Below are positions 13,349 through 40,562 of a DNA stretch of 64,000 nt, one piece after another. The notes beneath the pieces are model-generated. The model saw nothing but the letters and a program-made list of their open reading frames with translations, made no database searches and had not been told where the DNA came from. This DNA is from Gammaproteobacteria bacterium (lineage in GTDB: Bacteria > Pseudomonadota > Gammaproteobacteria > Tethybacterales > Persebacteraceae). How positions within the stretch are numbered: the first letter of the stretch is position 1; each line of letters opens with the position of its first letter. Both the position numbers and the translations under genes were made by a program. The DNA is taken from the NCBI GenBank assembly GCA_965243565.1, contig OZ251571.1, positions 905,129 through 969,128 of the forward strand. Direction: 5' to 3'.

Positions 13349-14031
13349 AGTGATATTTAGATTTAGATTTTGGTTCGGATTGTAGTTAAACGCTATTATC
13401 CGCTTATTATCCGCTATTTCCCCTTATGCCTACTGTACTCATTACCCACATCATTCACATTTCCACAGCGTTTATCTGGTAAAAATTCATCTGGCATTAT
13501 AAAACAAATTTTAACCGACTTTAACTTTTTTAGTTAGAGCCTAACTCTTGCAATGAATCATAATCTTAAAAACTGGCATGAATATTTCCAAACAGATGCG
13601 AATTGTAGAAGGATTATAGTATCCAATAAGCAGGAAAATAGTAAAAATAGAGTTTTTAGATTTTACGGAGGGAATAATTGAAATGAATGTGATGAATTAT
13701 GAATTATGCAAAGATTTCAATATATGTATATGTGTGAGTCATATTTTTGCACCTATAGATTTTTACCGCCATAGGCAGACTTGCATCGGCAAGAGGGCTA
13801 GGACTGATTAATGGTGGTTATGGCGATTAAAACCGTCGCACCAATTTCCTCTAATTATGATGACTTGGTAATTTCTTATTCTACCAAATTTACCAACATT
13901 GAGGTGGATTATGCAAAGGTCTAATACAGTGCCTAGCCACATAGTGCAATTATTATAGTGCTTATTTCATTAATTATTTGTTTTTAGCATAAAATATAAT
14001 TATTATAACTTTTTTGTTATAATGCGTTTCT

Positions 14032-18968: not shown

Positions 18969-19307
18969 CACCGTAGTAACAAGATTTTTTTCATAGAAGC
19001 AATTGTCCCTCGATAGTTCAGTTTGTAGTGCAAGTAACTGAAATTAAAAATTCAAACCTTTAGTTGTAAATGTGAATTATGCAAATATCTCAATCTAATT
19101 CACCCCGAACGAACTGAGCCATAGAAAATACGACAGTAGCCATCAACCCTATCAGTGTCAATCGCTGGTTTTATAGGGTATGTCCAACAACTACACGATA
19201 TTGACAACCCGTAGGGCAAAATATTGTTAGGTATGCTAGAGTAAAAGCATAAAAGTTTGCAAAGTGAGATTGCAAAGTGAGATTGCAAAAATCATGAGGG
19301 GAGAATT

Positions 19308-19496
19308 ATGACAAAGCAATTAACAAAAGAGATGATTATTAATGGCGACCGTTTATGGGTGTCAATAATGGAAATGGCAAAAATCGGTCCCGGTATTGCG
19401 GGCGGTTGCAACCGTCAAACGCTCTCTGATGACGATGCCACAGGACGGGCACTTTTTCAGCAATGGTGTGGGCAGAAATTACCGTTGCTGCTGTGA
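19308..19496 (+). pseudogene. N-terminal remnant (~60 aa) of an M20-family amidohydrolase (allantoate amidohydrolase / N-carbamoyl-amino-acid hydrolase type)
   Basis: MTKQLTKEMIINGDRLWVSIMEMAKIGPGIAGGCNRQTLSDDDATGRALF resembles the conserved N-terminus of this family; a full length would be ~410 aa. The ORF stops after 62 aa and the next gene starts ~100 bp downstream. Confidence 0.45.
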
Positions 19497-19598
19497 CTGG
19501 GACGGTTTTCTATGGTAAAATATTTCTATTAGAGATGAAAATATATTTTTAGCATCCCTCTTCTGGCGTTCTTAAAGCAGAAACAGGAGGAATATAAG

Positions 19599-20603: not shown

Positions 20604-20717
20604 CATGACTGTAGCATATTGCCTTGAGTTGGCAAGCCTCATCAAAAAAATAGTGATGACAGATAAGGGAAAATGACTGTATTGTGAATAAAAACCAATA
20701 CAAAGACGGCATTCTAG

Positions 20718-20993
20718 CGGAACGTTTATCTGATCATTGAATGCGGGCGTTGTCATATTGCTTGCGAAGACACTTCACATCAAGCCATTACCAACCAAAT
20801 AAACGGCGTACGGCGTTTTGAGGTGATAGAAGAAGAATGCGTGGGTTGTAATTTATGTGTTAATGTTTGTCCTGTAGAAAATTGTATCACCATGGAAACG
20901 TTGCCACCTGGTGCTGTTGATAAACGTACTGGTGCCACAGTATTAGCGGAATTTGCCGACTGGACTACACACCCAACTAATCCTTCAGCATAA
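20718..20993 (+). pseudogene. C-terminal remnant (~90 aa, no start codon) of a PreA/dihydropyrimidine-dehydrogenase-like protein (2x[4Fe-4S] ferredoxin tail)
   Basis: Open frame IECGRCHIACEDTSHQAI...EEECVGCNLCVNVCPVENCITMETL with two Cys-cluster motifs; no upstream catalytic domain remains. Confidence 0.5.
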
Positions 20994-21014
20994 GAATAAT
21001 GCTGAAGAAAAATA

Positions 21015-21191
21015 ATGAAAATAATAATGTTAATGTTAACATTGTCTGGGTGCGTTCCAGTTCTAATAACTGTACCACCACCAGATATTACTATCAGCCC
21101 TGATGAATTTAATGAGACAACGATAGTAAGAATGTCGCCAAAAGGTGCTATTGTTATTCTCCTATCGATTATGGACTATCAGCAGGACTAG
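21015..21191 (+). pseudogene. Possible small lipoprotein remnant (58 aa, lipobox LSGC), with related sequence continuing out of frame
   Basis: MKIIMLMLTLSGCVPVLITV... then a stop; downstream, another frame continues with a plausible peptide. Weak. Confidence 0.25.
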
Positions 21192-21481
21192 GATTTGAGT
21201 ACAATACCTTTCTATCCAGATTCTATTGTGGTTATATTAGGGGCTACCGATATAAGATCATTTAGCAATTTTGACGTTAAGATTGATGGTAAAGTTTATC
21301 AATATATCGTTAGAAAAAATGTACGCATTTTGCTTTGGTTTGTAAAATTGCTGCAATTAATTTATTGAGATGAATTATGCAAAGGTCTAAATTATATTAA
21401 AAAAGCAGTAAAAATCGATAGGTGCAAAAACTTTTTGCAGTAGTACGGTCTATGATAATAATGCAATGATAGAATCCACTT

Positions 21482-32705: not shown

Positions 32706-33941
32706 CTAACTTTTAATGTTTGAGAAAAATTCAGTATTGCTTTTTGATTGTCGTAATTTATCTAAAAGAAATTCAATTTTTTTCTCGTCATCCATAATAG
32801 ATAAGGCTTTACGTACTATCCAAATATTTTTTAATATCGCAGCATCAATCAATAAATCTTCGCGACGAGTACCTGATTTATCAACCAATATAGCAGGATA
32901 AATACGGTGCTCGGCGATACGTCTGTCAAGATGTAATTCCATATTGCCAGTGCCTTTAAATTCTTCGTAAATGACTTCATCCATTTTAGAACCAGTTTCG
33001 ATCAATGCGGTGGCAATAATGGTCAGCGAGCCCCCTTCTTCGACGTTTCTGGCAGCACCAAAAAACCGCTTGGGACGTTGCAATGCTTGGGCATCAACAC
33101 CACCCGATAAAACACGTCCAGAGGCTGGTTGCATAGTATTATAAGCACGTGCCAAACGAGTGATTGAATCAAGTAATATAACGACATCTTTAGACATTTC
33201 GACCATACGCTTGGCTTTTTCCATAACCAATTCTGCCACTTGTACATGACGTGATGCGGCTTCGTCAAAGGTAGAAGAAATAACTTCCCCCCTTACAGAA
33301 CGTCTCATTTCTGTTACTTCTTCAGGGCGTTCGTCAATCAATAGAACAATCAGATAAACATCGGGGTTATTTTCTTCGATAGCGTGAGCAATGTGTTGCA
33401 AAATGACGGTTTTACCGCTTTTGGGTGAGGCAACCAACAATCCGCGCTGCCCTTTGCCAATGGGCGAAAACATATCAATAATGCGGCCAGTTAGGTTTTC
33501 TTCAGCACGCATATTGCGTTCTAGGCAAATTTGCTCGGTAGGAAACAATGGTGTTAATGATTCAAAAAATGTCCGCTTACGATTTCTATCGTTGGCATTC
33601 ATGTTGTTGATTTTTTCGAGGCGGCTTAACGAAAAGAAACGCTCGTTGTCATGGGGACTACGCGCTTCACCAATAACCACATCACCCGTACGCAACGAAA
33701 ATCGTCTGATTTGTTGTTGGCTAACATAGGCATCCCCTGCCCCGCCCACATAGGATTGATCAGCATAACGCAGAAAGCCAAAACCATCTACAGTGACTTC
33801 CAGCGTGCCCTCAGTGATAATTTTAGCCCCTTTTGCAGAATACGCTTTAGCCAGTGATATTAATAACTCATGCTTACGCATGCGTAGTGCATTTTCAATG
33901 CCTTCTGCTTCAACCAGCTTTACCAGTTCTGCAATCTTCAT
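32706..33941 (-). CDS. rho: Transcription termination factor Rho
   Basis: Collinear with E. coli Rho from ...[13 protein letters not shown] through the Walker A (GKTVILQ) to the C-terminus. Start set at MKIAELV (33941). The open frame continues upstream to 34154; see findings. Confidence 0.9.
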
Positions 33942-34200
33942 GATACGAAAATAAAATAAAATAAAATCAGGTGCTGATAATACTTCTGTCGCCGCCGTAG
34001 GAGCTGCTTTTTGTTCTGCTCTTTGTTGAATCGCTAATTTTTCGAGGCGGCTGTTAGTGGCTTCGAGTTGGGTGATTTCAGGGGGAATCTTACGGCGACG
34101 TTGTCGTAATGCGTTTTGTTGTTGAGATGATTGTGGTGATTGTGGTGGTGGCATAAAAAAATGGTTTCCTTTCGAAAAAAAAACTAAATATGGGGGGAAA

Positions 34201-34764: not shown

Positions 34765-34840
34765 TGGTGCCCCAGAGACGATTTGAACGTCCGACCTTGC
34801 CCTTAGGAGGGGCCTGCTCTATCCACTGAGCTACCGAGGC
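34765..34840 (-). tRNA. tRNA-Arg (anticodon CCU)
   Basis: 76-nt cloverleaf folded by hand: acceptor GCCTCGG/CTGGGGC (two G-U pairs), D-arm GCTC/GAGC, anticodon loop CTCCTAA, T-arm GGACG-TTCAAAT-CGTCT, CCA end encoded. Confidence 0.8.
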
Positions 34841-34845
34841 AGTCG

Positions 34846-36564
34846 TCAATTATTAATGGTATCCTGTAAAAAAGAAAGCACGCCGTCAATAGGTATCAAT
34901 TCTGTCCCTTCTTTAAAGCGGTTTTTATACTCAACCTGACCTTCTTTTAAGCCACGGTCACCAATCACAATGCGGTGTGGAATACCGATTAAATCCAAAT
35001 CCGAAAACATAACACCTGGGCGTAAATCTCTATCATCCAATAAAACGTCAATATTAGCCGTTTTACATTGTTCGTAAAGATTGGTAGCGGCTTGTCTTAC
35101 TGCTTCGGAACGCCCCCATGAAATCGGCGCGATAACAACACAAAACGGTGCAATCGCATCAGGAAACATCATGCCATTATCATCATAAGCTTGCTCAATT
35201 GCGGCGGCGACAATACGCGTAACGCCAATACCGTAACAACCCATTAAAATATTCACATACTCATCAGCAGCGGACTTAATCACGGCATTCATCGCAGTAG
35301 AATATTTATCACCGAGCTGAAAAATATGCCCCACTTCAATACCACGAACACCTTGTAAAACACCTTTGCCACAAGGTGATTCATCACCAATTTCGGCATT
35401 GCGTAAATCGGCAAATTCGGGCTCTGGACAATCTCGTCCAAAATTCACCCCTGTAAAGTGATAATCATCCTCATTCGCACCACAAACAAAATTAGCAGTA
35501 TTAATCAACGCATTATCAGCAATCACAGGCAACGACATATTAACCGGTCCTAATGAACCAAAACCAGCCCCAATAAGTGCTTTTGCTGCCTCTAAATTCA
35601 ATAATTGGGCGTGCTTACCAATAGCGGGGTGATAACTCGCTTTAATAAGGTTTAATTGATGATTGCCTCGTAATAAAACAGCCGCAGCACCTGCCTCGCC
35701 CTGCACTATCATCGTTTTAATATTTTTATCACCCGACATTACTACGTCCATCTCCAAAAACTCACGCAATGCCGCAATCGTTTTTACTCCGGGAGTGTGT
35801 ATTTTTTGCAATGATTCAGTCGGATCAGCGCGATTTTTATTCGGTAAAACACACGCACAACGCTCAATATTAGAGGCAAAATCACTATCATCAGAATATA
35901 AAATTAACTCTTCGCCGGTATCGGCAAGCACCATAAACTCATGCGATAAATTACCGCCTATCGTGCCAGAATCTGCCTCAACCATGCGATAGTTAAGCCC
36001 AATTTTGTCAAAAATAGTACAATAAGCCTGACGCATAATCTCGTAGCTCTGTTCCATGCCTTTATCATCCACATCAAACGAATAAGCATCCTTCATAATA
36101 AACTCACGCGCACGCATTACCCCAAAACGCGGGCGGATTTCATCACGAAACTTGGTTTGAATTTGGTATAAATTAATCGGTAATTGACGGTAACTAGTAA
36201 CAATGTGACGCACTAAATCGGTAACAATCTCTTCATGTGTTGGTCCCATGCAAAAATCGCGTTTATGTCTATCAGAAAATCGCAACAATTCAGCACCGTA
36301 ATCTTTCCAGCGACCTGACTCATGCCATAAATCAGCCGGCTGCACAGAAGGCATAAAAACCTCTGCCGCCCCTGAAGCATCCATTTCTTTTCGTACAATA
36401 TCAGCGACTTTTCTGGCAACTCGCCAACCCAATGGCAACCATGTATAAATACCACTAGCCACACGGCGGATAAACCCGCCCCTCACCATTAATTGGTGAC
36501 TTATCGTTTCTGCATCCGCAGGCGACTCTTTACTAGTATGAATAAAAAATTGTCTTGCTAACAT
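34846..36564 (-). CDS. proS: Prolyl-tRNA synthetase
   Basis: 572 aa; class II motifs and the editing-domain insertion typical of bacterial ProS. Confidence 0.95.
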   Translation of the reverse strand: MLARQFFIHTSKESPADAETISHQLMVRGGFIRRVASGIYTWLPLGWRVARKVADIVRKEMDASGAAEVFMPSVQPADLWHESGRWKDYGAELLRFSDRHKRDFCMGPTHEEIVTDLVRHIVTSYRQLPINLYQIQTKFRDEIRPRFGVMRAREFIMKDAYSFDVDDKGMEQSYEIMRQAYCTIFDKIGLNYRMVEADSGTIGGNLSHEFMVLADTGEELILYSDDSDFASNIERCACVLPNKNRADPTESLQKIHTPGVKTIAALREFLEMDVVMSGDKNIKTMIVQGEAGAAAVLLRGNHQLNLIKASYHPAIGKHAQLLNLEAAKALIGAGFGSLGPVNMSLPVIADNALINTANFVCGANEDDYHFTGVNFGRDCPEPEFADLRNAEIGDESPCGKGVLQGVRGIEVGHIFQLGDKYSTAMNAVIKSAADEYVNILMGCYGIGVTRIVAAAIEQAYDDNGMMFPDAIAPFCVVIAPISWGRSEAVRQAATNLYEQCKTANIDVLLDDRDLRPGVMFSDLDLIGIPHRIVIGDRGLKEGQVEYKNRFKEGTELIPIDGVLSFLQDTINN

Positions 36565-37544
36565 AACGTTGATTCTATCAGTAATTTAAACACACTGCTA
36601 TTATCAACATCCCCTTATGTGTAATTTTTTATTTCTTGCCAGTTAATGATGTTGTGTACATCATCTAAATCAGTAAGGGGTTTATGTTAGGTAACAAGGG
36701 AAAATCAGGGTAATGTCGCTCTTTAGCAATTTGTTAGGATGAAAATGCTGACATAACTGCAAAATATGAACAGAATATTCCCAAACCAAAAACTTTTTAT
36801 ACATATCCAGCTCAATCCTGCAGAAATGGCAATGTACCGTTAAATGCGTGCCCAATCTTAGCGTGAGGACTTTTTATTCACATTCCGGAGTTTCACCATA
36901 ATATTGATTGTGCAAAATATCTAATTACGCAAAGCCAGCGGCTCCAAATAAGACTCCGAGACCAAATATTAAAAGAGGAAAAGCTAGTCCCATTGCAAAT
37001 TTTTCGCTTCCTGACTTTGAAAATAATGAGCTTAACATTCCCATTAATAGCTATTACCGCGGACCGCCAGTTTTTAATCACAATTACCGATTGGAGTGCC
37101 GTTTTACCGGCTTCAAGACTGGCTTTTAGTAATTCAATACTTACGGAAACTGGTGGCATTGTTAGTCAGCCAACATCCCTTGATGTTCCTGATAATCAAT
37201 TTCTCCTGTTGCAATGATATATTATTCAGGTATGCCCTGAGCCCAGCTATGGTTACTTATAAATTGACCTTTCTTTTCTAGCAGATCAATCTGATACCTT
37301 AAATCGCTAACAATTTCTTCTGGCTTCATAAATGGGTTCCGATTCTTCGCTCATTATTGTTTCCTAACATAACTATTAATCATATAATTTATTATACATT
37401 ATAAGCAATTTTTAGATAGTTTGGTAGATACATGAGTTGTAATTACATTATCATATCTAATTAAGTTTTCACTCCCTTTTTTTCAAGGGGCATAATCACG
37501 GATATAATGCACACTGTCATGATTGTTATAGCAATATTTAAAAA

Positions 37545-37982
37545 ATGAATACACAAGAAGCACACGCCAGAATAAAAATTAACAAACTGCTTGAAAAAGC
37601 AGGTTGGCGTTTATTGGATGACGAACAAGGAAAAGCCAACGTACAACTTGAACAGAATGTAAAAATAAAGCAAAAAGATATTAATGATTTTGGCACGGAT
37701 TTTGAAAAGACAAAAAACGGCTTTGTTGATTTTTTACTATTAGATGATAGAGATTTTCCGTTGGCTATATTAGAAGCAAAAAAAGTAGAAAAACAAAAGT
37801 CATTTTTAGAAGAAATTTACAATGAATTAATTAAATCTTTTGATGATGATTATGAAATGACACCTGACGACATAGCGGAAAATTTTACCACCTCATATTA
37901 TTTTTCTGAATATGAATTAAAAATGCTGGCAGAAAATAAAAAAGATATAGTCTCTAAATTTATTAATGAAGAACTATATTAA
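37545..37982 (+). pseudogene. Truncated HsdR-N-like PD-(D/E)xK nuclease domain (145 aa, N-terminal part of a type I/III restriction R subunit)
   Basis: EAHARIKINKLLEKAGW... GFVDFLLLDDRDFPLAILEAKK matches the conserved HsdR/Res N-terminal motif (D...EAK). Ends after 145 aa with an acidic tail; no helicase domains follow. Confidence 0.5.
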
Positions 37983-38119
37983 TCTGCAAAAGATAATTGT
38001 ATTAAGTAAACAACACCTTTCTTTTTGATACCTACTGCTTCTAATACTCTATAATATGCACATGAAAAACGCTAAAAAATTAACACAACTTGCGATAAAA
38101 CGGTTTTTAGAGGCATAAT

Positions 38120-38946
38120 ATGACGCGTAAATATTATTCACACAGAGCGGGTATTAATCCAAATTCAGATGGACTCCCCCTTGAAGATATCATTGGCTTG
38201 TTTTTAGATATGTTTGAATCACTGGAATCAGATGACTACTTTGACGAGGCATTTGGTTTTTGGTGCGAAGATAGAAATGAAATAATTGAAGGTAAAATAA
38301 AAAATATTGATAATACAATACTCATTGACATAGGAAAGAAAAATTTATGGCCCATTGGGTCTCTGCTCGAAACTATACCGAAGATGACCTTCTGGATATG
38401 ATTGAATTTTTATATCAGCATGTTTCTAAGCCAGCAGGTGTAGTATCACATTCCCATCAGGCGGGATCATTCAGTATGATGTTCTACGTATGTAATCACT
38501 GGGATACATTTGATAAAGAAGAAGGTCAAAAAATATTTCGTGAGCAAATAAATTTTATTTTAGAAAAATATAAAACAAAGTTTGAACTATCAGAAACGGG
38601 AGAAATTCTTCATTCACCTGAACAAGGGTTTGAGAATATTTTTAATGCCGATATTCCAATAGATGATAATAATGTTACCGAAAAAATGAATACTGCAAAG
38701 GCAAAATTTCTTAAATATAAGGCAAGCATCAATGAGCGACAAAGCGCAGTAAGAGATTTAGCGGATGTGTTAGAATATTTAAAACAAAAAATGAAAAATA
38801 CTCTTACAAAACAAGACGAAAGCGACTTATTCAATATCGCTAATAACTTTGGTATACGGCATCATAATGATAACAAAAAACATCTTATGATAAAAAGATT
38901 TGGCTTAGTTGGATGTTCTACCATTACCTTTCTACAATTCATGTAG
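38120..38946 (+). pseudogene. Hypothetical protein split by a frameshift at an A5 run (~38337-38341)
   Basis: Two overlapping ORFs in frames 2 and 1 that read through as one ~275-aa protein if one base is added; no recognisable domain. Confidence 0.4.
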
Positions 38947-39397
38947 TACTCCGTACAATAGAGCGCGACAAAAAACAAAAATTGCCATTATAGAAGGACA
39001 GCGAAGCATAAACTACTGCTTTCTTTTTTTCTTTTTTAGATTTACGCGTTGCCGGCGATTGGCAAAAACATAGGAGATATAGAAATGATGGAGAAAAAAT
39101 TCAGAGAATGGCGTGGGAAATTTGCCAACTCAAAATTTAGCTAAGTAAACTTATTTGTACGCTTCAACTCAAATAAAATTTAACAGATTATATTTGACTA
39201 CCCAGAAATCAAAGAACAAATAGGTGGATAACTTACCATTTGAAATAACCCACTATTACACAATAGGTAAAAAACTAGAAAGATACTTATAATGAATTAA
39301 TTCGAAAAATAGAAAAAGCAAAAAAAAAAATAGACAAGCCTAAGTAGCTCTACTAATCTATAGATACCGCTTTAAAAAATTATGAAAAATTTCTTAA

Positions 39398-39778
39398 GGA
39401 AACTACTTCTTAAATATTACAGAAGAAGTAAAGAACCCTAAACAGTTTATAGAAGGAGCAAAAATATCCGTTACGATTAATCGTTATGAGAGAGACCCAA
39501 GAGCAAGAAAAAAATGCCTTAGGCTTTGTGGCTATAAATGTGAAGTTTGTGATTTTGACTTTGAAGAAGTCTATGGCGAACTAGGTAAAGAGTTTATTCA
39601 TGTTCATCATATCGTGCCATTAGCAACGATAAAAGAGGGATATGAGGTAAACCCGATTGATGATCTTGTGCCTGTTTGCCCTAACTGCCATGCAATGATT
39701 CATCGCCGAGAAAAAATATTAACAGTAGCTGAGTTAAAAGAAATTATGGACAAACAAACAAACAAAATAATCCTCTGA
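39398..39778 (+). pseudogene. HNH nuclease domain fragment (C-terminal remnant, no start codon)
   Basis: Open frame ...ERDPRARKKCLRLCGYKCEVCDF...FIHVHHIVPLA...DDLVPVCPNCHAMIHR has the HNH Cys4/His signature. Upstream 39060-39400 holds only multi-frame debris. Confidence 0.6.
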
Positions 39779-39899
39779 CGCTGTAAACTAAAATCTAAAT
39801 TAGTAATTAACTGTTACATTATCTATTTTTTATAATAAAAAATAAATTACATGCTAGAATAGCATATCTAATTTATAACACTTACAAGGAGAGTTTATT

Positions 39900-40562
39900 A
39901 TGTCGTTACGCATTAATGATTTAGCACCGAATTTTCAAGCAGAAACCACGCATGGAAAGATTGATTTTCATGAGTGGATTGGCGACGATAGTTGGGCGAT
40001 GTTGTTTTCACATCCGAAGGATTTTACGCCAGTCTGTACTACTGAATTGGGCTATATGGCAAAAATTCAGCCAGAGTTTGAACGGCGTAATACTAAAATT
40101 ATCGGTTTGAGTATCGATGCGAGTTCTGAACATGCAAAATGGATGAAAGATGTAGAGGATGTTGGCGGTGCAGCGGTTAATTATCCCGTTATTGCGGATA
40201 CTGATTTGAATGTGGCTAAGCTGTATGATATGTTTCCGGCTGATATTAGTGGTACTTATGAAGGGCGTACTCCGGCTACCAATGCCACTGCGCGTGCTGT
40301 TTTTGTGGTGGGTCCTGATAAGCGTATTAAGTTGATTTTGATTTATCCGATGACAACGGGGCGTAATTTTAATGAGATTTTGCGTGCATTGGATTCGCTA
40401 CAGTTAACGGCAAAGCACAAGGTTGCAACGCCAGTGAATTGGCAACCAGAAGAGGATGTTATTATTGTTCCGTCTGTTAATAATGAAGAGGCAGAAAAAA
40501 TCTACCCAGATGGCTGGAATACGGTTAAGCCGTATTTGCGTCTCGTGAAACAGCCCGATTGA
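39900..40562 (+). CDS. 1-Cys peroxiredoxin (Prx6-like, AhpC/TSA family)
   Basis: 220 aa; peroxidatic motif DFTPVCTTE; Prx6-type length. Confidence 0.85.
   Translation: MSLRINDLAPNFQAETTHGKIDFHEWIGDDSWAMLFSHPKDFTPVCTTELGYMAKIQPEFERRNTKIIGLSIDASSEHAKWMKDVEDVGGAAVNYPVIADTDLNVAKLYDMFPADISGTYEGRTPATNATARAVFVVGPDKRIKLILIYPMTTGRNFNEILRALDSLQLTAKHKVATPVNWQPEEDVIIVPSVNNEEAEKIYPDGWNTVKPYLRLVKQPD

Follow-up and report, generated by a model that had tools for sequence, protein, structure and literature searches.

Defence systems already described come close to every recognisable part of the locus reported here. In type I restriction-modification systems of the EcoAI/FtnUII-like kind, the HsdR subunit combines a nuclease domain bearing a D...ExK signature and a QxxxY motif with an SF2 motor and a C-terminal domain, alongside a methylase/specificity gene, which is fused (M/S) in locus L139 and on E. 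coli IncF plasmids (locus L050). HEPN-type accessory genes, with an Rx4-6H motif, can occur within restriction-modification operons (Anantharaman et al. 2013, PMC3710099). McrA-like type IV HNH endonucleases (5-methylcytosine-specific restriction protein A in the source naming) share a set of conserved Cys, His and Asn residues, while AbiJ (Lactococcus Abi-859), Abi_C proteins such as SadR and the PADLOC candidate PDC-S32 place an alpha+beta N-terminal domain before a helical C-terminal bundle.

The window, by which we mean the whole 64,000-nucleotide stretch that was analysed, comes from a 1.68-Mb, ankyrin-rich and probably host-associated bacterium. Between proS and a peroxiredoxin gene it contains a 3.3-kb gap (36565-39899), longer than any other part of the window that lacks a long gene, where an ORF survey found no frame above 199 aa, in agreement with the initial annotation of ~3.2 kb lacking an intact long gene. 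GC content falls to 0.28-0.35 over 37200-39800 compared with 0.404 window-wide, and outside the interval coding density is ~87%, with long intact ORFs. We consider this interval, with a probability of about 80%, to be what is left of three anti-phage genes, unrelated to one another and now inactivated, produced by ordinary gene decay and not representing a new system. Its features are as follows:

36565-37544, no strand assigned: spacer upstream of proS, GC 0.347, with no significant ORF and no similarity found
37480-37508, plus strand: promoter-like site TTTTCA-17 nt-TATAAT, from a consensus match only (10/12)
37545-37793, plus strand: 5' remnant (the first ~83 codons) of an R subunit gene of type I-like restriction, from homology to R N-termini
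37785-37982, plus strand: 3' remnant of a ~230-aa gene, its last ~65 codons and stop, from C-terminal homology and tblastn
38120-38993, plus strand: pseudogene of a ~279-aa AbiJ_NTD4-like family (PDC-S32-related), from tblastn in three frames
38356-38364, plus strand: first frameshift of the pseudogene, at GGGTCTCTG, in TCTCT and not in a homopolymer
38449-38502, plus strand: stretch with an 8-residue insertion that breaks the family's invariant H...CGMHW loop
38874-38881, plus strand: second frameshift, in an A run with six A where seven are needed for the frame
38994-39397, no strand assigned: debris full of stop codons, 7-11 per frame in all six frames
39398-39778, plus strand: McrA-like (type IV-type) HNH nuclease domain, from Pfam, PADLOC and homologues

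The ORF at 37545-37982 had been described as a stand-alone 145-aa HsdR-N-type PD-(D/E)xK domain. That description holds for residues 1-83, which correspond to an R-subunit N-terminus with its D...E-A-K residues, but not for the remainder, which derives from a different gene, residues 81-145 corresponding to the C-terminus of the third gene (gene 3) of the L139 operon. By these homologies the ORF is an in-frame deletion chimera of two genes from one operon and not a domain standing alone. Its R portion is 58-72% identical to the N-termini of HSDR_N+ResIII proteins and, over residues 3-84, 68% identical to the R protein of L139 (836 aa), and keeps D62 (in GFVDFLLLD) and E77-A-K79 in alignment with the homologues. 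The Pfam HSDR_N match reached 19 bits, below the cut-off of 25.1, and a weak match to the EcoAI-family R model was also obtained. Homology breaks off at EAKKVEK, where homologues run on as NPLxGKEQARxYA, and neither the QxxxY motif nor the remainder of the nuclease fold is present in the ORF. The annotation that the frame ends before any helicase module was correct, as no SF2 translocase (ResIII or Helicase_C) follows the ORF and tblastn with three full-length R proteins returned nothing past residue ~100. Likewise, no methylase or specificity remnant turned up in the island when the methylase of L050, the M-S protein of L139 and all ORFs of the fetched loci served as tblastn queries. Thus, while the D...ExK signature is common to HsdR and the window ORF, the latter lacks QxxxY, the SF2 motor and the C-terminal domain, has no methylase/specificity gene, and runs into the tail of another gene.

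The intact arrangement was seen in L139, where the gene order is R (836 aa), fused M-S (843 aa) and gene 3 (234 aa), and a methylase also lies immediately upstream of gene 3 in L140-L142. The tail of the 145-aa ORF matches residues 138-232 of L139 gene 3 (tblastn E 2.5e-14) and has 11 relatives among 1.84 billion representative sequences (best E 2e-17, 65% identity), all aligning at the C-termini of proteins of 59-234 aa. The gene-3 family is rare, ~230 aa long and characterised by a conserved RNxxxH motif, which falls within the deleted portion, and it had no match in Pfam, NCBIfam or PADLOC. Like the HEPN accessory genes, gene 3 belongs to a restriction operon, in which it comes last, after R and M-S, and RNxxxH fits Rx4-6H; unlike them, the family has no profile match, and the window retains only the part that follows the motif. 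A HEPN identity for gene 3 was considered but gained no support, as neither Pfam nor structure searches gave a significant match, with HEPN structures occurring only among the insignificant matches to a low-confidence model. We propose that the ancestral operon would have encoded an R protein (PD-(D/E)xK nuclease plus SF2 motor), a fused methylase/specificity protein and the ~230-aa RNxxxH accessory protein, and that a single ~5.2-kb deletion fused R codon ~83, with the frame kept, to the accessory gene at its last ~65 codons. The product is the 145-codon chimeric ORF, from which motor, methylase and RNxxxH motif are all missing. By analogy with what is established for such families, the intact operon would have provided methylation-guarded DNA restriction.

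Downstream, the initial annotation had recorded a ~275-aa hypothetical protein split by a frameshift. The gene is indeed frameshifted, but there are two frameshifts and it extends to ~38993. Using the ~279-aa protein P0002 as a tblastn query, residues 1-276 of 279 were recovered colinearly over three frames (38120-38359, 38362-38880 and 38880-38993) with 59-85% identity, and the protein of the window matched PADLOC PDC-S32 in part (E 1.9e-10). The suggestion that this protein belongs to no family and could be a novel defence component was not upheld, with more than 2,300 homologues that are 57-61% identical over their full length. Among the 128 columns conserved at >=95% in the family, 22 are replaced in the pseudogene, including R71, R189, R190, H191 and R199. 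The second frameshift could be a sequencing error, since it lies in an A run. In our reading a single-gene Abi-type element has gained the two frameshifts, the insertion in the invariant loop and the many replacements at conserved sites; when intact, it would have encoded an abortive-infection type toxin, going by what is established for such families.

Beyond the pseudogene, 39060-39400 had been called multi-frame coding debris, which fits the stop density seen throughout 38994-39397. Conceivably, what has decayed here is the N-terminal domain of the HNH gene that follows. Low-stringency tblastn gave weak colinear hints of this only, profile searches with six-frame segments reached a best E of 0.57, and frameshift-aware alignment was no better than with shuffled sequences except for P0281 (z 2.85, equalled by 1 of 60 shuffles). 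The HNH frame itself gave clear matches to Pfam HNH (E 4e-9; 36.9 bits, above the cut-off of 21.4) and PADLOC mREase_IV (E 4.9e-8), is 50-63% identical to HNH proteins of 100-220 aa, with 5-methylcytosine-specific restriction protein A as their name in the sources, and keeps all 36 columns that are conserved at >=90%, including CxxC ... HH ... N ... CxxCH ... H. It was correctly annotated as start-less, as no in-frame ATG, GTG or TTG occurs from the stop at 39395-39397 to a GTG at 39614, inside the domain. The frame is open for 126 codons, far beyond chance length (~3e-5 at local composition). Compared with McrA-like type IV endonucleases, the domain therefore shares all conserved Cys, His and Asn residues but has neither a start codon nor a recognisable N-terminal domain. 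In our reading a McrA-like gene has lost its start together with whatever recognisable N-terminal domain it had, its catalytic domain being still pristine, and the intact enzyme would, on the basis of such families, have cut modified DNA. A 1-nt change in AAA 39412-39414 would join an ATG at 39382 to the HNH frame, yielding a protein of 131 aa, a size within the 102-135 aa spanned by stand-alone HNH homologues. The break lies in an A run and could be a sequencing error; no Shine-Dalgarno sequence precedes ATG 39382.

These observations bear on how far the lesions are real and the remnants dead. Some of the pseudogenes could have arisen in assembly, the organism itself having an intact Abi-like gene and an intact short-form HNH gene that only homopolymer-length errors break in this sequence, for which the A6/A7 position of the second Abi-like frameshift, the single nucleotide separating the HNH frame from a 131-aa protein in the size range of stand-alone homologues (102-135 aa), and the 36/36 conserved columns of the HNH domain would all speak. 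We regard this as unlikely, because the first Abi-like frameshift lies in TCTCT and not in a homopolymer, the same copy also has its invariant CGMHW loop interrupted by the 8-residue insertion and departs from the family at 22 of 128 conserved residues, ATG 39382 is without a Shine-Dalgarno sequence, and a base-calling error cannot produce the deletion between R and gene 3. Furthermore, the remainder of the window is densely coding with long uninterrupted ORFs, which indicates that the assembly is not generally error-ridden. Conversely, the 145-aa chimera could be a functional, newly formed small protein, for example a decoy or regulator, in which an R N-terminus has been joined to a helical module at the C-terminus. 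The reading frame is kept across the fusion, its 145 codons remain open in 28%-GC DNA far beyond chance length (~7e-7 at local composition), and a good promoter-like site ends 37 nt upstream. Even so, a whole-query search of 5.8 billion proteins found this architecture in the ORF itself alone, an exhaustive search with the tail gave gene-3-type proteins alone, the nuclease fold is severed directly after ExK, and a recent deletion accounts equally well for the open frame; we therefore hold a functional chimera to be highly improbable. As both the chimeric ORF and the HNH frame are far longer than expected by chance, the lesions must have arisen recently unless a remnant is still in use.

The origin of the interval was weighed in the same way. 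It had been placed directly next to tRNA-Arg, as a possible tRNA integration site, and a tRNA-targeted integrative element would suit the presence of a tRNA-Arg gene 1.7 kb away, the AT-rich, foreign-looking composition, and the finding that, at other loci of the 279-aa family, 2 of 63 upstream neighbours are integrases. However, proS (1.7 kb) stands between the interval and tRNA-Arg(CCU) (34765-34840, minus strand), whose 3' end at 34765 points away, toward trxA. The direct repeats of the tRNA 3' end that had been proposed as a check were not present either, as no second copy of its 24 nt occurs in the whole window with <=3 mismatches allowed, and no direct repeats above chance flank the interval. 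No integrase remnant was detected within 36565-39899 by tblastn with the ORFs of the fetched loci, a query set that includes two integrases, or by Pfam on selected fragments, and we consider a tRNA-targeted element to be extremely unlikely. The best proS match, from one genome scan, is only 68% identical and has neighbours unlike those here, with synteny absent, and so we infer rather than observe the ancestral state of the interval and the boundaries of the island. Proteins of the window, looked up by exact sequence, matched no record, and a cluster look-up yielded no accession. This nearest, though distant, proS relative belongs to a sponge-symbiont lineage.

The interval is thus best explained as a small AT-rich defence islet, probably horizontally acquired, in which all three cargo genes would now be dead. 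The homologies, the lesions, the gene order of the intact operons and the absence of a conserved partner for the 279-aa family are observed, whereas we infer the horizontal arrival of the three genes, the order and timing of their decay and the non-function of their remnants. The initial annotation of a wreck of nuclease-based defence genes is borne out by the type I-like restriction, Abi-type and HNH remnants, but not its view that the pieces came from one former restriction-modification or defence system, as the 279-aa family has no conserved partner among 56 downstream and 63 upstream neighbours in other genomes. Read as gene decay, the interval would be a record of lost defence in this genome, whose organism may no longer need, or be unable to afford, such systems. 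The 145-aa ORF also illustrates how one in-frame deletion could make a defence operon resemble a "stand-alone nuclease domain", which annotators could misread as a new small protein.

The spacer to the left agrees with the annotation of a ~1-kb, ORF-free, AT-rich stretch; its longest ORF within 980 bp is 88 aa, which is within chance length, and it presumably contains the proS promoter. There were no matches from Pfam on fragments, from Rfam or from blastn against plasmids, nor from tblastx with the window and all fetched loci as targets, and 7,208 ORFs taken from those loci likewise gave none as tblastn queries. A 16-nt inverted repeat (36682-36697 / 37357-37372; 15/16 complementary) is, by rough estimate, at about chance level.

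The analysis also brought up two uncharacterised families, the rare RNxxxH protein that ends R / M-S operons and the highly conserved 279-aa AbiJ_NTD4-like protein, and intact copies of both from other organisms are candidates for tests of anti-phage activity. The latter family has 2,365 homologues in the database that are 68-90% identical to the reference P0002, with members across Vibrio, Sulfurimonas and Paraburkholderia, and neither Pfam nor PADLOC has a model dedicated to it. Sixteen of 20 members matched AbiJ_NTD4 (PF18863) weakly, all below the gathering score (best E 2.7e-5), while hhalign against an AbiJ_NTD4 / PDC-S32 protein gave a probability of 96.7% (E 4.4e-10) over a region that takes in the C-terminal NIxNxFxIRH stretch. 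Judged from these profile comparisons, the family is probably a distant relative of AbiJ_NTD4 and PADLOC PDC-S32. The window protein and intact members match only positions ~84-226 of the 301-position PDC-S32 profile (E 1e-8 to 1e-12), whereas a Vibrio paralogue covers positions 1-300 (E 2.3e-52).

The predicted architecture is an N-terminal alpha+beta domain, sensor-like and with an invariant Cys/His quartet, followed by a C-terminal four-helix bundle, which resembles that of AbiJ, SadR and PDC-S32. Unlike AbiJ, the family has no Abi_C match even at E 10, and its conserved motif is R238-H239-H240-N241 (RHHN) in place of Rx4-6H; unlike PDC-S32, it matches that profile in part only, and the window copy is a pseudogene. 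The bundle topology is compatible with HEPN but is not proof of it, and Pfam and structure searches gave no significant match in support of a HEPN identity (best Foldseek match to HEPN, E 5.4). The literature searched contained no paper on PDC-S32 and no experimental test of the 279-aa family. That the family constitutes a widespread abortive-infection system of a single gene, so far overlooked and different from both AbiJ and PDC-S32, we regard as a tentative proposal that is somewhat doubtful at present, and one to which the window contributes a pseudogene only.

Family members are stand-alone genes with varied neighbours, of which a minority are defence or mobile-element genes, and some loci adjoin retron-type RTs, RES or other defence genes. 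In L051 an HNH gene follows the 279-aa gene, and a two-gene system of Abi-like and HNH genes was considered and rejected, as HNH and HNH_2 each account for 1 of 56 downstream neighbours; the L051 HNH belongs to a different subfamily from that in the window (37% identity, core only). The V. cholerae copy lies within an array of small same-strand genes (DUF645, DUF3709, TfoX_C and glyoxalase), cassette-like genes that may be part of a superintegron.

The interval between proS and the peroxiredoxin gene (36565-39899) is the window's largest stretch without a long ORF, in DNA with a coding fraction of ~87% and a GC content of 0.404 overall. Every element listed in the initial annotation is present here, and its core reading of a wrecked nuclease-based defence locus was right: the region contains three dead defence genes, independent of one another and each of a known kind, and represents ordinary genome decay. 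The features of the region and its flanks are:

about 32706-33965, minus strand, rho
between rho and tRNA-Arg(CCU), minus strand, trxA
34765-34840, minus strand, tRNA-Arg(CCU)
34846-36564, minus strand, proS
37545-37982, 145-aa ORF, an R-subunit N-terminus and a gene-3 C-terminus
38120-38993, frameshifted hypothetical, a pseudogene of a ~279-aa family
39398-39778, HNH remnant, a stop-to-stop frame with a complete HNH domain
39900-40562, plus strand, 1-Cys-type peroxiredoxin, separated from proS by a 3.3-kb gap

The three genes would have met different fates, namely a single in-frame deletion, frameshifts with relaxed selection in the 279-aa-family copy, and beheading of the HNH gene.

The 145-aa ORF had been described as an HsdR-N-type domain, which holds for its first 83 residues, the remainder being the C-terminus of gene 3, a rare ~230-aa protein. 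Up to residue ~83 the ORF matches HSDR_N+ResIII restriction subunits at their N-termini (58-72% identity) and retains D62 and E77-A-K79, with the homology ending directly after the ExK, where homologues go on with NPLxGKEQARxYA. The last 65 codons would be open by chance at this composition with P ~0.001, and as this is far beyond chance the tail was searched by itself against 1.84 billion representative proteins. This gave 11 relatives (best E 2e-17, 65% identity), all 11 aligning at their own C-termini. The full-length ones, of 226-234 aa, have a conserved RNxxxH motif ahead of the alignment. One of these full-length proteins, P0371, is the gene-3 product of a compact operon from a locus fetched for comparison (L139; ENA contig ctg23774, 93-5820), whose genes are:

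gene 1, 836-aa R subunit with HSDR_N_2, DEAD/ResIII and SWI2_SNF2 (EcoAI-family model, E 1e-67)
gene 2, 843-aa fused methylase/specificity (M-S) protein
gene 3, 234-aa protein with the conserved RNxxxH motif

In three more loci a homologous methylase likewise immediately precedes the other full-length member of the gene-3 family. Using tblastn, residues 3-84 of the L139 R subunit aligned to window positions 37548-37793 (68% identity, E 1.5e-31) and gene-3 residues 138-232 to 37668-37970 (E 2.5e-14), with no further remnants of R, methylase/specificity or gene 3 left in the region. The simplest reading is that the 145-aa ORF is the product of one deletion of ~5.2 kb, as measured on L139, in an R / M-S / gene-3 operon. 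This would have placed the final ~65 gene-3 codons in frame behind R codon ~83, with loss of the motor, the RNxxxH motif and the whole methylase/specificity gene.

Gene 3 had no match in Pfam, NCBIfam or PADLOC, and its structure model was of low confidence (pLDDT 68), with HEPN structures only among its insignificant structural matches. From its motif and its place in a restriction operon we infer that it may be a HEPN RNase (PMC3710099). A conserved 172-aa gene is found downstream of gene 3 in four of the comparison loci (L140-L143). Among annotated proteins the R remnant is closest to one on an E. coli IncF plasmid (CP068913.1, 59903-67451), which carries no label beyond 'DEAD/DEAH box helicase family protein'; it adjoins an 'N-6 DNA methylase' and an SMC-like gene and is present on many conjugative E. 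coli plasmids, and restriction-like modules of this type appear to be under-annotated.

The frameshifted hypothetical had been regarded as a possible novel defence component with one frameshift. The frameshift is real, but there are two and the gene extends to about 38993, and by its sequence it is a pseudogene in a large family related to AbiJ/PDC-S32, so the idea of a novel component fails for this window. Its repaired translation matches 2,365 proteins, the best being ~279 aa and 57-61% identical with 99% query coverage, and residues 1-276 of one family member are covered in three window frames by tblastn. The frame breaks are at GGGTCTCTG (about 38360) and at an A6 run (about 38878), an 8-residue insertion sits in the invariant H...CGMHW loop, and 22 of the 128 columns conserved at a level of at least 95% are replaced, including R71, R189, R190, H191 and R199. 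In the family alignment C49, H110, C115 and H118 of the N-terminal domain are invariant (numbering of the reference member, P0002), which suggests a metal-binding site, and the window copy's insertion falls exactly in the C115-H118 loop.

Conservation within the family is striking, with aligned members from Vibrio, Sulfurimonas, Saccharospirillum and Paraburkholderia 68-90% identical to P0002. While no Pfam domain is above threshold and Abi_C is not matched, 16 of 20 members show weak matches to AbiJ_NTD4. The family profile matches an adjacent Vibrio parahaemolyticus AbiJ_NTD4 protein over 206 columns (probability 96.7%, E 4.4e-10), including the C-terminal NIxNxFxIRH stretch. The PADLOC candidate defence profile PDC-S32 matches this paralogue at full length (E 2.3e-52) and the 279-aa family partially (E 1e-8 to 1e-12); as the latter match is partial, membership of PDC-S32 was ruled out and the family is, on these profiles, best placed as its distant sister. 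In the AlphaFold model (pLDDT 84.7, pTM 0.78) an alpha+beta domain at the N-terminus is followed by a C-terminal bundle of four helices, with invariant R238-H239 just ahead of the last helix. The model had no significant match among solved structures. AbiJ proteins have been predicted to be HEPN toxins whose N-terminal sensor domains vary (PMC3710099; PMC13064643) and SadR, an Abi_C protein, has been described as a non-specific RNase (PMC13590631); by analogy, the 279-aa family may act as a HEPN toxin or RNase.

We surveyed neighbours of the 279-aa gene in 80 metagenome loci and five loci obtained by exact look-up of intact members (L051-L055). The 56 genes downstream and 63 upstream had no family in common, the most frequent being reverse transcriptase (3), AbiJ_NTD4 (2) and integrase (2), with HNH and HNH_2 found once each, and the gene is a stand-alone unit. 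In Vibrio cholerae it is one of a series of small genes on the same strand (DUF645, DUF3709, TfoX_C, glyoxalase), which we read as a putative superintegron. On a Vibrio parahaemolyticus-type contig (L053:1-9861) it comes immediately after an hsdM-hsdS-HD-hsdR-YgjP type I locus and is itself followed at once, in tandem, by the distant full-length PDC-S32 / AbiJ_NTD4 paralogue. On a 526-kb ENA MAG contig (L051:5468-13235) its neighbours are an ATPase gene (AAA_15/SMC_N) and an HNH gene of 269 aa, and rho-trxA is 2.7 kb away. In the window, too, a rho-trxA pair lies ~2-3 kb from the islet, with the tRNA and proS between; this may be chance or may mark a neighbourhood of repeated insertion. The 279-aa family, like the rare accessory protein with the RNxxxH motif, is uncharacterised, and intact copies elsewhere could merit testing.

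The HNH frame matches Pfam HNH (E 4e-9) and a PADLOC type IV methyl-directed REase model (E 4.9e-8), is 50-63% identical to 100-220-aa proteins, often named 5-methylcytosine-specific restriction protein A in their sources, and keeps all 36 columns conserved at a level of at least 90%. As had been noted it is start-less, with no in-frame ATG, GTG or TTG before 39614, inside the domain. It may derive from a long form whose N-terminal domain has decayed, or from a short form of 131 aa, starting at the ATG at 39382, that was disrupted by one base in an A run. The 400 bp upstream contain 7-11 stops in every frame, and the N-terminal domains of homologues, which form many unrelated clusters, gave no alignment to this debris above shuffled controls except for a marginal score with one homologue, P0281. 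Under either history the gene as assembled is untranslatable from a standard start.

A tRNA-targeted island had also been proposed. The tRNA-Arg gene does not adjoin the region, as proS lies between and the tRNA 3' end points away; no second copy of this end was found in the window, no flanking repeats of the region were above chance, and no integrase remnant was matched in the region using ORFs of the fetched loci, which leaves the proposal without support. The 980-bp spacer 36565-37544 has a GC of 0.347 and the remainder, up to 39778, one of 0.28-0.35, with the flanking proS and peroxiredoxin genes at 0.42-0.43. This spacer has no ORF exceeding chance length, matches nothing in Rfam and resembles none of the sequences searched; it presumably holds the proS promoter and, because its GC is intermediate, may be native and not part of acquired DNA. 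Within it a 16-nt inverted repeat (36682-36697 / 37357-37372, 15/16 complementary) encloses 659 bp, is near chance expectation by rough estimate, and shows no target-site duplication.

Among 185,579 species genomes the nearest proS was that of Candidatus Zeuxoniibacter abyssi (Tethybacterales; 68% identity), with no neighbours in common. Tethybacterales are described as a lineage of sponge symbionts (PMC8546597). Beyond the peroxiredoxin gene are two ankyrin-repeat genes (40653-41414 and 41620-42915, minus strand; 253 and 431 aa) and then ruvA, with the N-terminus of the 253-aa protein appearing signal-peptide-like. Ankyrin-repeat proteins are typical of host-associated bacteria. Three more gaps, at 13349-14031, 18969-19598 and 20604-21481 (630-880 bp), lack any ORF of at least 110 aa and may contain further pseudogenes or genes for RNAs.
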